A DNA stretch of 64,000 nucleotides from a virus (IMGVR_UViG_3300037455_000402:74951-138950); one strand, 5' to 3'; counted from the stretch's first letter, positions 1 to 64,000 are shown. Made by a program: numbers and translations. Notes: a model not told the origin generated them from the sequence alone.

Positions 1-1432
1 ATTCATAATAATTTCTCTAATAATTATTAAGACGAACATAGGGAACAATAGCTAAATTATGATTTGAATACTTATCAATTAAATATTCTAATTTAGAACT
101 AATTTCTTCCTCAGTGAATGAATCTTCAAAATGGTCAAAATCAATTCTTTTACTGAAATGTTCCATGTTTATTACAACGACTTCCTTATGAGTTTTATCA
201 TAAGCCTTGTGCTATCCTAATAAAGCAAGTGCCGCCCAAAGAAAAGCAACGTTTTCCCAAAGCTCACCAATTTCTTTTAATAAGCCTTTTATCATTTTAT
301 TTAAAGGACTATCTTCATCAAAAAGATAAATACTTATTCCTGCAAGAACCTAACCGATAACCCAAAAGTCTCGGTTTAAATCTTCAATTTCAACCTTGCG
401 TTGATACTGCGGCATAATAAGACGAATCCACTTGTTTTGTCCCTGAGTTCTTGTAAAGCCAAGTTTCTTTTCATCACAAAGTACGCTTAACTTTTTATCA
501 CTACCACGAACTCTACTATAAGTTTCTCCATCAACATTATACCAAGGAACTACCCAAGGATTTTTTACAACCTTGAAAATCTTATAGGTTCCTGTGATGC
601 TATAAGTGCCAGCCTGAGCAGGAATCACATATTCTTCGTTTTCATCATCAAATTCCACACCGCTTCTTACTGAGTTACTAAATTCCTAAGCCTAAGAACT
701 ATTTAACTAAGTTGGATTTGCTTCCAAAGGTCCGAAATATTTATTTGCTTCTTCGCCAAATAAAACATTTTTTCCTTCATAAGAATGATTACCTTTTGTA
801 ACTTTTACATAAGAATAAAATCTTAAATATTCATATACATCATTCGCATCGGCAAAGCTATAGCCAGCATCAGCATCCATAATATCAATCATACGAAGTT
901 CTGCTACTGCTCCATGTGCCGCAATACTTGCACGTAAATGTTCAGTATCAATCATTCCTTCGTCTTCTGGCGGCTCAGTAATTTCAATAAGAAGACCAGA
1001 CCTCTCATAATCTCTAACAGATTCGGGGTCAATTTTCTCTGCAAGAAGCTTCATTAAATTCGCTACTGAATCATTCCAAAAGTCTTGCCATATATCTGTA
1101 TCGTCGGTTATTTTTGTATAATCATTTTTAAAACCATTAAGGTCGACGAGTGCATTTTTAAGAGAGGTATAAAGACCATTCTCCCCATTAAAAAATTCAT
1201 CTTCACCAAATTCTGTATCTTCAAGCATAGACCAGTCAATACGATTTGCTACCTATTGAATTAATGTAGTAGAATTATCTATTTCGTCCTGGGTAATAGG
1301 AGTAATCTAAGGAACTTCTGAACTGTAATTAATTTGAGTTAAAGCCATAAGCTCCTTATATAAATCCTTTCTCTTATCGGGATTAATAGATAAATAATCT
1401 ATCATCAACTGTAAGAAATCACTTTTATTCAT
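1..1432 (-). CDS. Hypothetical (probably virion) protein, paralog A; runs off the left edge; TAG read as Gln
   Basis: ATG at 1432 after a GGGGTG RBS. Track ORFs 707..1228 and 350..658 share one frame and are joined only by TAGs. Shares the core IRLxMPxYxRxVExEDLNRxFWVIGQV...LWEN with 1440..3104. Confidence 0.8.
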
Positions 1433-1439
1433 CTATTAT

Positions 1440-3104
1440 TCACCCCTTTATATTTTGCCATGTCGCTACTTCGCCACCATACCAACCTTGTACAATTTCT
1501 ATCGGAGAAGTTGGGACATTAACTGATGTATCATTAAAGTCACTCTCATTATGAGTATAGATTAAAGACTTAATAGTTGAACGAGTAAGACTTCCAATTG
1601 AAAAAGTTCCTTCGAATACCTTACTTGTTACACCGCCAAGCTATTTACTAACGTCATAGACTTCAGCAGTTATATCTAAAGTCTTAATTTCGCCATTTTC
1701 AAAAGTTAAATTACTCCAAGAAGTAAAGACAGTTCTTAATGCCGCACTATATGGAACATTAATTTCTCCATTTTTATAATCCTTAACAAAATAATATTTA
1801 GTAGAATTTTCTCTCATTCCCCAAGGATTATTAGCAAAAACTCTTGTACCAATTCTCATAGAACCATTATCATTCGGAGTAACTATAAAACGTACAAAAT
1901 GAGTATTATTAAGGAAATAGAATGGAATATAACTTATATAAAAAGTTTCATCAAAAGTATTATCTGATGCCGCACTAAAGTTATGACTCCATCTGTCATA
2001 AAAAATAATGCCCGGATATATTTCACCAGCATATCTATTCTCTTTATAATTACTATATTTAACTTTAGGAATAATAATCAAAGAAGAGTCTCTATATAAG
2101 TCTTTAAGATATTGTAATGAGTTCCAACACTCTGCTAACATAGTGTCTGGTAATTTATCAGAAACGGCTTCTCTCATAGTATAAGGAGTAAAGTCATCAA
2201 ATTTAGTCTGACCAAAATCAAAACTATATCTGTCTGTTCTCAATTCACGAGAAGAAATTGGCACAACTAAAACAATAGGATTTTCTCTTATTTCTTTCTA
2301 TGAGATTAAAACAAATCCAACCCAAAGATATAAAAGATTTTCCCAAAGCTGAGCAATTTCATCTGCCATTCCCTAAAACAAATCTTTAAAAGGATTCTTT
2401 TCCCCAAATAAGAAACCGCAAATACCACTGATAACCTAACCGATAACCCAGAAGTTACGATTTAAGTCTTCAACCTCTACGGTTCTTTCATATTCAGGCA
2501 TGAGAAGGCGGATATATTTTTCTAAGAGTTTATGAGTAAATTGCATCTTAGTTTTATTAGATAAAATTCTTACAATCTTATCATTTCCTCTTACTTCATC
2601 ATAGAGATAGCCGTCTACATTTGCATGAGGTTTAACCCAAGGTCCCGTAGAATTAAATTTGAATCCTGCATCAGCGCCAAGAATATCGCCTATTTTTATA
2701 TTATTGGCAACTTCTTTATTAGCATCATACATATCCTAAAAATACTAAATAAGTTTCTAATAGCTCTCATTCCAATGTGGTTGAGTTCCATCGAAACATT
2801 TATCTAAAAAGCTATCAATTAAATCAGCATTATTGTTTATATATTCAACAACGCTCTATTCATTAATTTCTGCTTCTTTATCGCCACCAGAGGTAAACAT
2901 ATAATCTCTTATACCATATTCTCCATTTGGTAACTTATCTTTTTCATTTTGAAGATAATTGAGAAGACCATCCCAAAAATCGTCCTGTCTATCAGCAAAG
3001 GCTTTTAATGCTTCACCATCAAAATTCTCTGCATTAATTAACCCGCTATTAATAAGCGAATCCATTATCTAATCGAAGGTTGAATAATTATTTATCTCCG
3101 CCAT
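1440..3104 (-). CDS. Hypothetical (probably virion) protein, paralog B, 554 aa; about 9 TAG=Gln
   Basis: ATG at 3104 after GGAG. ORFs 2856..3065, 2436..2732 and 1641..2264 are in one frame separated only by TAG. Ends at TGA 1440-1442. Confidence 0.82.
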
Positions 3105-3414
3105 TCTCTCCACCACCGAAGCGTCCCATAATATCCTTGAATGAATCAAATCCAAACATTGCAATGAAAGCAACAATGAATCCGCCAAAGATACCAAGGA
3201 TAATTGTTGAAGCAATAGCTCCAGATACGAAAGCTCCAGTCATAAATAAGTAAGCAAACATTACGAAGAAAGCAGTAATGATTGTTACAAGTTTAGTAGG
3301 AACGTTCTTAGGAAGCAAATTCTTTGCAACCTGAACAATTACAGAAGTTATAGATGCAAGTATACCTGCTATACCTAAGGCAGAACCACCGACTAAAGTT
3401 GTTAAAAACTCCAT
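3088..3414 (-). CDS. Holin-like membrane protein, 108 aa
   Basis: Two to three hydrophobic segments and a charged C-terminus; directly downstream of the endolysin; no TAG. Confidence 0.75.
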   Translation of the reverse strand: MEFLTTLVGGSALGIAGILASITSVIVQVAKNLLPKNVPTKLVTIITAFFVMFAYLFMTGAFVSGAIASTIILGIFGGFIVAFIAMFGFDSFKDIMGRFGGGENGGDK

Positions 3415-3437
3415 AATCTCACCTCACTTAATAAAAT

Positions 3438-61679: not shown

Positions 61680-61685
61680 AAAGAA

Positions 61686-61708
61686 GAGGCTTAGTAAAAC
61701 TAAGCCTC
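61686..61708 (-). terminator. Stem-loop after the tape measure gene
   Basis: GAGGCTTAG-TAAAA-CTAAGCCTC. Confidence 0.7.
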
Positions 61709-61714
61709 ATAAGA

Positions 61715-64000
61715 TTAAAGTTCTTGTTGAAGAATTGTATTTGTACCTGCAGGGCGGGCAACTTCTACAATTTCTTCTTTAACTCTTTCGAGCATTTCAT
61801 CAATATCTGTTTCAGATGAAATATGGTCGATATTAAGATTAATTTCAACATTAACATCGCCACCGTTATTTGTAACAACTGTTGAAGAATCTGTTGTTCT
61901 ATCAATCCAAGGAATGTTAGAAAGTATTCTTGCCGCATTACCAATATTCTCAGTATCCTCTGCAGATAAGAAAGCTTCAGGTCTTTCAGGAGAACCATCG
62001 ACCCAAGCTGGACCAGTATAATTTACAAGTCCGCCTTCAGCAAATTTCTTATTCGCGAGTTGAGTTGCAACCCAATGAATAAAGTCTGTCTCAGATAGCT
62101 TCTTACCAGCATCAGAAATTGCATAACCATTAATTCCAGCCTTACTTGCATAAGCAGCGGCTTGATTTTTATGATAAGTAAGCCAATTCTCAATAATTTC
62201 TTCTTTGCTGAATTCGCTTTGGTCTGCAAGTTCTTCAACTCTATCAGAAGATAAGGTAGAAATTTGACCAATCATTGCCTTATCAGCTTCAGCACCTTCC
62301 ATCTTCTTAGAAATATCATCTAATGCCTCGTGTCTTACGCCATAGCTATTAATTAATCCATAAAGAGATGACGGTTCTGGTTCTGGCTCATAATCATTTT
62401 CCCATTCCTCATAGGTATTTGGAATATTTACTGCATTTTGGTAAGCATCTGCGGCGGCATTAGCTGCGGCAGCACACTCATTATATTTCTGAATAGCTTC
62501 TTGTAATGCCTTATTGGCATCATCAATTGCTTTTTCAGCTTTTTCCATATCCTCAGTAAATGCCTAAGTAGTTTCATTATAAGAACGGATTACTTCATCA
62601 GAGAAAACTTCTGCAGTTGAAGTAATTATCTAATCAACCTCTTCACCAGTTACTGTCATTGTTTCAACAATGAAATCTCCAGTTTCAGAAGATTTATCCA
62701 TTGCAATAATTGACATATATTCTGTTGCGGCTTCATAGGTTTCACCATATTCTCTTAATTTATCCTACTACATAGCTAATGTCATATCAGCATATTCTTT
62801 AGAGATACTTGAAAGATAAGTTGCATATTCATCGGCAGATTCAAATGAACCCGCAAGGCTTTCAGCCTATGTATTCCAATAAAGAGTATTATCAAGCAAT
62901 GCTTCTTTAAGCTCCATCTCTTCATCACGAAGTTCTTGCTATGATTCGTAAAGTTTTGAAAGTCCATCAATAACATTATCAATAGCATCATCAAGCATCT
63001 ATTCTCTTGTTTTTTCAACGTCCTATTCAAGATTTTGAACTTCAAGAGCATTAGCACCTGATGTATCACGCTACATAAGAGATAACTTCTTTTCTTTCTA
63101 AGCAAGGTCTTCCCAAGCCTAATCTTGTTCACGAAGTTGTCTCTATTTATCAATAGCTTCCTAAAGAGCGTCAAGGTAATCGTCATCAGCATCTTTCATT
63201 GAATCATATTTATTCTTTAATTCATCAACTTCATCCTAATATTGCTATTTAAGTGCATCAGCAATTTCTTGCTCCATTTTAACATATTTTTGTCTTGCCG
63301 CATCGCGTTCATCTTGTAATTCTTTTTCAGCTTTACGAACATTATCTTCTGACTTAAGTAAATCTTCTGAATATTTATTGTAATTAGAAACCTATTCTTC
63401 AAGATAATCTTTCCATTTATCAGCAAATTGAGCTTCATTAATTAATCTCTGGTCAATCATGTATTTTCCAGTACGAGCATCCTTCTTTACATAATCACCA
63501 AATTTAACATCAATGTTATTACCAGTTTCTCTATCAGTGTAGCTAACGCCACCATTTTCAATAGTGTCTGCATAATTAGCAAGACCCTTTTGATAGATTT
63601 GCTGTTTAGCTTTTTCTTCTGCAAGAAGATTGTGAGTAGCCTAAGTATAACGAAGAAGTGCATTGGTTGATTCTTCGACAGATTTACTATCAGATAATAA
63701 ATCTTTTGAACGAGTAATTTCATCGTTAAAGGAGTTAATAGCTTCCTCATAGTTATAAAGTAAATCAAGAGTAGTTTTACGATTTGGAGAACCATAAAGA
63801 AGTTCATTATATTCTTTAAGTTTTTCATTTAAGTCTTCTTGCTTTTCAATTAAATCTTCTTCTGCTTTTGCTAAGTCTTCTTGTGCTTTTGTTAAATCTT
63901 CTAATGCTTTTTTACTATCAGTTGCTGCGCCTTTTATTCCATTGAAGCTTCTCTATACTTCTCTGTAACCGGCATGAATTTTATCAGATCCAATGTATTC
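61715..64000 (-). CDS. Tape measure protein, C-terminal part (starts beyond the right edge)
   Basis: Long coiled-coil frame with many TAG; RDTSGANALE and FAEGGLVNYTGPAWVDGS..RPEAFL motifs; TAA at 61715. Confidence 0.88.

Follow-up and report, generated by a model that had tools for sequence, protein, structure and literature searches.

In a 64,000-nucleotide stretch of viral DNA (bases 74,951-138,950 of IMGVR_UViG_3300037455_000402; hereafter the window), a positive pressure acts on the complete five-base word GCSGC (GCCGC or GCGGC), in all three reading frames and in non-coding DNA. The window belongs to a single virus genome of 186,457 bp and 37.5% GC that is rated complete by CheckV. It holds 142 GCSGC sites (95 GCCGC and 47 GCGGC on the + strand; 2.2 per kb, coding and non-coding) against a zero-order expectation of ~20.5 at its GC content of 34.8%, and in the whole genome GCSGC is the top 5-mer, with 451 sites, or ~2.4 per kb (about one every 400 bases), 5.2-fold over the zero-order expectation. 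A first-pass annotation of the window had reported the enrichment, which is real, but its figure of about 10-fold is too high, the zero-order excess in the window being ~7-fold; two of its regional counts are exact (20 in 1-8,600 and 22 in 17,881-25,560), the third is 28 rather than 29 (51,500-64,000), and the site coordinates that it quoted are right to within a few bases. The sibling words that it described as rare are indeed so (GCCGG 4 and CCGGC 7 in the window). We favor, at close to but somewhat short of an even chance, a reading whereby GCSGC is a selected word intrinsic to the phage lineage, resembling the highly iterated palindromes (HIPs) of cyanobacteria and recognized by a putative reader.

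Enrichment of the complete five-base word

The sites and the features that bear on them lie as follows in the window; the letters B to D denote blocks of genes transcribed in one direction.

1..64000, no strand: field of 142 dispersed GCSGC sites, from counts and codon shuffle
1..17600, minus strand: part of block B, 34 sites (25 GCCGC and 9 GCGGC on the + strand)
17601..51460, plus strand: block C, 80 sites (54 GCCGC, 26 GCGGC)
51461..64000, minus strand: start of block D, 28 sites (16 GCCGC, 12 GCGGC)
21857..21864, plus strand: overlapping sites GCCGCCGC in an Ala run
25501..25508, plus strand: overlapping sites GCCGCCGC inside the NrdD gene
3439..3465, no strand: non-coding inverted pair GCCGCC...GGCGGC forming a hairpin stem (TTGCCGCCATCCGCTAAATGAATGGCGGCA), sites at 3439 and 3461
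13314..13330, no strand: non-coding inverted pair GCCGCC-GATTA-GGCGGC forming a hairpin stem, sites at 13314 and 13326
9492..12998, minus strand: the sole long GCSGC-poor gene, 1,168 aa, with 18 in-frame TAG codons and no Pfam family

The excess survives when proteins and codon usage are held constant. In the codon-preserving shuffle that had been proposed as a check in the first-pass annotation, in which synonymous codons were permuted within each gene so that the proteins and the per-gene codon usage were kept, the coding sequences of the window contain 122 sites against 31.6 +/- 4.6 (maximum 48 in 200 shuffles; 3.9-fold, z = 19.6), and the genes beyond the tRNA island (genome >31,000) contain 308 against 95.7 (3.2-fold, z = 26). 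In the latter set no 5-mer is more enriched than GCSGC, and GCWGC ranks second among the depleted ones (0.56-fold). Maximal-order Markov expectations place GCCG, CCGC and CGCC in excess by 1.65-1.84-fold at the 4-mer level and add a further 1.46-fold (z = 8) at the 5-mer level, with no residual excess at 6-8 bases. Because the excess ends at five bases, the unit is a 5-mer, and the enriched words CCGCC and CGCCG are its shadows. Codon choice depends on context in the same way: the Gly codon GGC is used in 53% of cases after NGC versus 20% elsewhere, the Arg codon CGC in 36% after NGC versus 6% elsewhere, and the Pro codon CCG in 46% when G precedes and C follows versus 9-12% with one flank only. 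In the 6.9 kb of non-coding DNA of blocks B-D the density of sites is unchanged, 16 occurring where 3.0 +/- 1.7 are expected, and about half of the 16 sit in hairpin stems; the stems at 3438 and 13314 that the first-pass annotation had pointed to as intergenic are confirmed as inverted pairs in non-coding DNA. Across the genome the spacing of sites is exponential, except for the overlapping GCCGCCGC, with no clustering or pairing in genes.

From density, 8.5 sites are predicted in the GCSGC-poor gene at 9492..12998, which contains one and sits in the longest site-free stretch of the genome. It contains just one Ala-Ala pair, and shuffling its own codons gives an expectation of 0.38 sites. Its product is 24% identical to a protein of one complete relative (G004) and has no match in another relative (G005), and the gene may be fast-evolving or recently acquired.

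A passive origin of the excess, in which amino acids, codon usage or the purge of palindromes (GGCC, CCGG, GCGC, CGCG, GATC and GCWGC) funnels G+C into the words that remain allowed, is highly improbable in our view, although parts of it are real. Amino acids and codon usage alone lift the expectation ~1.7-fold over zero-order, the phage does purge GATC (0.02-0.06x), GGCC (0.2x), CCGG, CATG and CTAG, and GCSGC and CGSCG, both enriched, are the sole G+C-only palindromic words without any of the four avoided 4-mers. However, holding the 4-mer palindromes low has no effect: a sampler that keeps GATC, GGCC, CCGG, CATG, CTAG, CGCG and GCGC at their observed counts yields ~96 GCSGC sites versus the 308 observed, by which we reject restriction avoidance as the cause. 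GCWGC requires closer attention. An Ala-Ala pair is always written GCNGC, so that a purge of GCWGC would create GCSGC, and when codon usage is fixed and GCWGC is forced to its observed count, GCSGC rises from 96 to ~186, still below 308. Yet GCWGC is not avoided where the alternative is not GCSGC (Gln CAG, Leu CTG, Ser AGC and Cys TGC in the matching flanks; odds ratios ~1), while GCSGC is preferred in the contexts above where GCWGC is not the alternative; GCSGC is therefore the attracted word and the GCWGC deficit a by-product at Ala-Ala pairs, causation running from GCSGC to GCWGC, and the context tests rule out GCWGC avoidance as the cause. Clustering of G+C or slippage of (GCC)n was likewise rejected, given that other allowed G+C 5-mers are not enriched (CCCGC 1.03 and GCCCC 1.35), that there is no excess beyond five bases and that the spacing is random. 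A funnelling of G+C by coding constraints also sits poorly with the enrichment of non-coding DNA. Under every constrained null that we tried, the excess persisted.

Turnover and distribution among related phages

Comparison with relatives indicates that GCSGC sites are both retained and regained. Orthologous genes were aligned with five relatives that share 46-61% identical four-fold codons, and a two-state model was fitted at synonymous positions with conserved flanks and amino acids. At the third position of Ala codons before Ala, the equilibrium of the S state is 0.65 versus 0.16 in controls and the between-genome memory 0.42 versus 0.13 (pooled), loss being 5.5x slower and gain 1.7x faster than in matched controls; for Pro CCG in motif context loss is 4.5x slower and gain 2.6x faster, and for Gly GGC 2.1x slower and 2.7x faster. 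An odds ratio of ~9.8 corresponds to a scaled bias of ~2.3, under which gain should change by a factor of 2.5 and loss by one of 0.26, near the values observed. Whole words are conserved in the closest relative at 0.37-0.43, versus 0.12-0.28 for other G+C-rich words; GCSGC outdoes these in the two closest relatives, the effect is weaker in the relative G003, and still only about one third of sites are shared. The idea in the first-pass annotation that something creates or preserves the motif thus finds support in the pressure on the whole 5-mer and in slower loss together with faster gain, a combination that marks weak selection acting at each site and, equally, a conversion or repair bias.

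The word is shared by the clade of the phage. A scan of IMG/VR with a DnaE alignment gave 82 related loci, and in a DnaE tree built with FastTree all 18 of the 18 rows of the phage's clade are enriched 2.3-4.4x over the codon shuffle, while the wider family of the 82 loci lies mostly at 1.5-3x; the relatives L021, L022, L038 and L072 are poor in the motif. Enrichment at this level is not generic to low-GC DNA; the first-pass annotation had named the same level in unrelated low-GC Firmicutes genomes as an outcome that would speak against its claim. The two outgroups, Enterococcus phage VRE9_4 and a distant relative of 24% GC, have shuffle ratios of 1.2 and 0.8, and those of three bacterial metagenome-assembled genomes (MAGs) lie at 0.56-1.2. 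Sister lineages add further words, namely GCCGGC, CGGCCG, CCGCGG, GCGCGC/CGCGCG and TGCGCA, each 10-45x over composition and equally on both strands. The choice of flanks is selective, in that CCGG, where tolerated, occurs as GCCGGC and hardly ever as CCCGGG, and GGCC occurs as CGGCCG and rarely or never as GGGCCC. The purged words vary widely among relatives (observed/expected ratios of 0-0.9 for GATC, 0-2 for GGCC, 0-2.3 for CCGG and 0.03-5 for GCGC), which implies different host restriction landscapes. Since GCSGC enrichment persists despite these differences, its cause would be tied to the phage lineage and not to any one host.

The three MAGs came from a GyrA scan of bacterial genomes; related phage contigs are present in two of them, and the third is a distant Bacilli MAG. 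None of the three, which are not proven hosts, has a GCSGC excess (observed/expected 0.47, 1.67 and 0.48; shuffle ratios 1.04, 1.19 and 0.56), whereas the phage contigs binned with two of them reach 7-15x observed/expected and 3.2-4.4x over the shuffle. We refrain from taking the two phage-bearing MAGs as hosts, their avoided words not matching those of the phage contigs. Two clade phage genomes of 172 kb and 163 kb, L101 (in a MAG labelled Candidatus Melainabacteria) and L102 (contig 1 of MAG RUG13689, labelled Erysipelotrichaceae), are probably mis-binned, their composition and avoided words being unlike the rest of their bins.

The main rival to selection on the phage is a ratchet run by the host, in which a GCSGC cytosine-5 methylase together with T:G short-patch (Vsr-type) or methyl-guided mismatch repair would fix mismatches toward the word during phage replication, the word having no function for the phage. 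Published findings speak for such a ratchet: among the cyanobacteria surveyed, the 5-base palindrome with the greatest over-representation is the GCsGC of Cyanothece PCC 7822, a strain that gained GCsGC methylases (PMC4390886), and GCSGC methylases such as M.CglI and M.NgoAVII exist (PMC4267653). It would also fit much of what we see, in that ~90% of changes among near-identical strains are transitions, which makes C-to-T the main decay path of a G+C word, biased repair predicts slower loss together with faster gain, GCWGC, reached by a transition at the center, is the only clearly depleted one-step neighbor (0.56), and the extra words of sister lineages resemble methylase sites. The first-pass annotation had named a methylase with very-short-patch repair among its candidates; a version encoded by the phage itself is excluded. 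No gene for a cytosine-5 methylase, an N4/N6 methylase, Vsr or TGT/DpdA is present in the complete genome (PF00145, PF01555, PF03852 and PF01702 are absent), and no cytosine-5 methylase (PF00145) was found in five relatives (two of them complete). For the T-variants, which a ratchet should drain at the methylated position, the picture is mixed: the outer ones are undepleted (GTSGC/GCSAC 0.91-1.10, GCSGT/ACSGC 1.24-1.32; 0.91-1.32 overall), and the central one, GCWGC, is depleted, but solely at synonymous changes. Other palindromes are heavily purged, which suggests that phage DNA is not globally protected by modification.

The host's own version, for which the whole machinery would have to be the host's, meets the same undepleted T-variants and several further difficulties. 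Transversion neighbors are drained as much as transitions (in block B after NGC, GGA falls to 0.37 and GGT to 0.62 of the expected number), GCSGC is kept across relatives whose widely different avoidance profiles make different hosts probable, and the three sampled MAGs, though not proven hosts, lack the excess. Moreover, a lytic phage whose DNA is replicated by a DnaE of its own would be exposed to host repair for little time, and in a host equipped with a complete GCSGC restriction system, selection would run against the word. We therefore regard host-driven repair as unlikely, albeit less so than the other alternatives considered here.

Strand polarity and genome context

On the + strand of the genome GCCGC outnumbers GCGGC 305 to 146, and the bias is organized by blocks. 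In block B the sense-strand sites are mostly GCG-GCN (Ala-Ala) and NGC-GGC (x-Gly), and block-wide the first codon of Ala-Ala pairs is GCG in 46 cases versus 11.8 expected; in block C they are mostly GCC-GCN, with GCC as first codon in 37 cases versus 9.0 expected. The sense-strand ratio of GCC-GCN to GCG-GCN at Ala-Ala pairs is 16:48 in block B, 37:9 in block C and 31:21 in block D, which on the + strand becomes a C:G ratio at the center of 48:16, 37:9 and, flipped, 21:31. The + strand thus has C at the center in both B and C despite their opposite transcription. This polarity is spread over many genes (DnaE has 8 GCCGC and 0 GCGGC, and six block-B genes have 0:4 to 0:6). Background usage was rejected as its cause, C/(C+G) at four-fold sites outside the motif being 0.70-0.74 alike in B, C and D, and neither the preceding base, GC skew nor transcription direction accounts for the block-specific pattern. 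Among relatives the polarity is not conserved: G005 has 219:136, favors G-centered sense words in all blocks and shows in block D the sign opposite to this genome, and the complete relative G004 is balanced (128:123). The block-wise polarity may reflect replication direction or history. Stretches of 107 bp in G004 and 27 bp in G005 that resemble terminal repeats look like assembly overlaps of circular maps and were not taken as genome ends.

An orientation bias of this kind is what a Chi-like role, listed by the first-pass annotation among its candidates, would lead one to look for; GCGGC, or a longer word containing it, would halt an AddAB/RecBCD-type nuclease of the host, and the phage would hoard it to protect or recombine linear DNA. 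The Chi words known from Firmicutes (AGCGG, GAAGCGG, GCGCGTG) are short and rich in G+C, with a CpG in each, and the Ala-Ala orientation follows the + strand across the oppositely transcribed blocks B and C, flipping in D. Lambdoid phages that lack recombination modules are enriched in the Chi of their hosts (Zheng et al. 2025, PMC12315714), the sole well-understood case in which many copies of a short G+C-rich word, hoarded beyond chance, help a phage. The fit is nonetheless poor. Chi is asymmetric and polar, whereas the phage word is near-palindromic, its orientation bias is not conserved between relatives, and the words of the sister lineages are strand-symmetric true palindromes (GCCGGC, CGCGCG, CCGCGG), which a polar signal cannot be. 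In addition, with a Sak4-like annealase and a RecJ-like exonuclease the phage has recombination proteins of its own, in contrast to the Chi-rich lambdoid class, and the three sampled MAGs, though not proven hosts, are not enriched. A Chi function is accordingly very unlikely.

The genome is organized in the following blocks.

genome 1-31 kb: block A, the tRNA island
genome 31-92.5 kb, minus strand: block B
genome 92.6-126.4 kb (window 17601..51460), plus strand: block C, the replication module, with genes for ligase, RNase H, NrdD, GyrB, GyrA, Sak4-like annealase, PhoH, a multi-helix-turn-helix (multi-HTH) protein, DnaB, Toprim primase, RecJ and DnaE
genome 126.4-173 kb, minus strand: block D, late genes rich in TAG codons
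genome 173-186 kb, plus strand: block E

With ordinary stops, 25% of the genome is free of open reading frames (ORFs), and coverage rises to 92% once TAG is read through; two of the 48 tRNA genes carry a CTA anticodon. From the coverage and these tRNAs together it follows that the phage is TAG-recoded, TAG being read as an amino acid. A near-identity search of the phage collection gave no match to this genome. By protein search with DnaE, the nearest cultured phages are Enterococcus and SPbeta-type Bacillus phages at 37-39% identity, that is, distant Firmicute-phage DnaE, and the order of replication genes is common to the phage and Enterococcus phage VRE9_4. Strains near-identical to the phage occur in bovine and goat gut metagenomes from at least 13 studies; in the segment 17,801-37,800 of the window, four public runs show strains ~3% different, with ~90% of changes being transitions, and the changes are balanced in direction (in one run, for example, C>T 199, T>C 190, G>A 117, A>G 124).

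Several features of these genomes stand apart from the word. The anaerobic ribonucleotide reductase NrdD reads as two adjacent ORFs on the plus strand (24112-24705 and 24748-25965), of which one matches the family profile N-terminally and the other C-terminally; this may be a split gene, a frameshift or an intervening element. The DnaE gene of the window is uninterrupted, while in several relatives (L044, L052, L065 and L066, with matches of 4.4-5.2 kb, and G005 at 91,488-95,918) the match is unusually long or divided in two, with an internal stop, a pattern suggestive of an inserted intein, intron or homing endonuclease. Intergenic stretches of the replication module (window ~19,180-19,220; 22,350-22,395; 28,437-28,465; 32,852-32,885; 37,085-37,152) are matched by many unrelated metagenome contigs, the depth there reaching ~290 with many 'joints', and this suggests a promoter-like element common to many cattle and goat gut phages. 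Outside the window, an intergenic cassette is present in 13 copies at genome position 292 and at 173,495-184,731 (block E). Each copy carries GGCCCGGGCC(GCC) between hairpin arms of the TTAGT...ACTAAC type, followed by TTGACA; the cassette, which looks like a repeated terminator/early-promoter unit, concentrates GGCC and CCGG, words purged elsewhere in the genome.

A HIP-like word in a clade of gut phages

The closest match among known systems is provided by the HIPs of cyanobacteria, that is, HIP1 (GCGATCGC) and the alternative HIP GCsGC of Cyanothece PCC 7822, which is the most over-represented 5-base palindrome among the cyanobacteria surveyed (Elhai 2015, PMC4390886). The phage word is the same or of the same kind, short, G+C-rich and symmetric; it is hyper-abundant relative to composition, lies in genes in all frames and in spacers rather than being confined to a repeat element, and reaches ~2,400 per Mb, the published HIP range being 1,000-2,000 per Mb. 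As in HIPs, the word varies by lineage (GGCGCC and rCCGGy in cyanobacteria; GCCGGC, CCGCGG and CGCGCG in the phages). HIP1 sites are conserved, from which selection and a nucleoid role have been argued (Xu, Lawrence & Durand 2018, PMC5861425), and by the criterion of that study the phage sites, too, are conserved above matched controls. The differences are equally clear. The carrier is a phage of gut bacteria and not a cyanobacterial chromosome, every HIP-bearing cyanobacterium encodes a cognate methylase whereas the phage does not, the fold excess is below the 15-300x of HIP1, as expected for a 5-mer, the spacing looks random, and the phage strongly purges other palindromes such as GATC and GGCC. 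As the word is viral and has no cognate methylase, we class it as HIP-like and not as a member of the HIPs.

Other systems match less well. Dcm/Vsr very-short-patch repair, reportedly described by Bhagwat & McClelland in 1992 as shaping oligonucleotide abundance in E. coli, raises its recognition word and drains a one-transition neighbor, much as GCWGC is drained here; unlike it, the phage has neither a methylase nor a Vsr gene, its outer T-variants are undrained while its transversion neighbors are drained, and the effect is far larger than the modest one in E. coli. For HIPs, a ratchet based on methyl-guided repair was proposed by Elhai, Cyanothece PCC 7822 having gained GCsGC methylases (PMC4390886). 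The words at issue in restriction-site avoidance by phages (Rusinov et al. 2018, PMC6286503) are of the same class, and the phage does avoid GATC, GGCC, CCGG, CATG and CTAG, but for GCSGC, which the CglI and NgoAVII restriction-modification systems recognize (PMC4267653), the sign is opposite, the word of M.CglI and M.NgoAVII being accumulated instead of purged.

In the reading that we favor, a weak fixation bias acting site by site would keep a near-symmetric, G+C-only double-strand word at ~2.4 copies per kb. The bias is indifferent to the position of a site, so that sites turn over while their density stays, and its cause would travel with the phage lineage. The most likely source of such selection would be a putative conserved factor that reads GCSGC on double-stranded phage DNA, each site giving a small benefit with a scaled advantage of perhaps ~2. 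This reader could be encoded by the phage or be universal in its hosts, and putative candidates are the Toprim primase and the gyrase-like topoisomerase of the phage. The small multi-HTH protein of the replication module would be a poor candidate, because part of it matches phrog_4680, a family also matched by the protein at the corresponding place in the motif-free Enterococcus phage and thus common to a phage without GCSGC.

Several points weigh against a selected word with a dedicated reader. The reader protein is hypothetical, and biased mismatch repair is mathematically identical to selection, so that the rate test cannot separate the two; its estimates, moreover, come from small samples in motif context (151, 70 and 34 codons pooled) with this genome in every comparison. 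An alternative source of the bias would be an enzyme present in every host of the clade, and the words of the sister lineages (GCCGGC, CGGCCG, CCGCGG, GCGCGC and TGCGCA) resemble methylase or restriction sites, as a host-enzyme cause predicts for them. The random spacing gives no sign of a structural array. Finally, the two MAGs with related phage contigs, to which the lack of a bacterial excess in part refers, are not proven hosts, given that their avoided words are unlike those of the contigs.

We speculate that the large rumen and gut phage clade to which this genome belongs marks its own DNA with dense GCSGC and lineage-specific companions (GCCGGC, CCGCGG, CGCGCG), which a putative conserved factor would read to distinguish phage DNA from that of the host or to organize it, possibly in priming, topology, packaging or protection from host nuclease. 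This wider proposal is on balance doubtful. If it is true, HIPs would be a selected device in general use among large viruses rather than a curiosity confined to cyanobacteria. Phages usually delete short palindromes of the restriction type, and here a clade accumulates one such word while purging others. The clade also offers a tractable system for the 30-year-old question of what HIPs are for, with a small genome, no resident methylase as a confounder, many natural relatives with different words and a per-site fixation bias that can be measured. Should host repair turn out to be the cause, host methylation and repair would be able to rewrite phage codon choice several-fold, which would matter for k-mer-based host prediction and for codon-based models of phage genes; should a reader protein be the cause, GCSGC would represent a new kind of genome-wide DNA signal in viruses.

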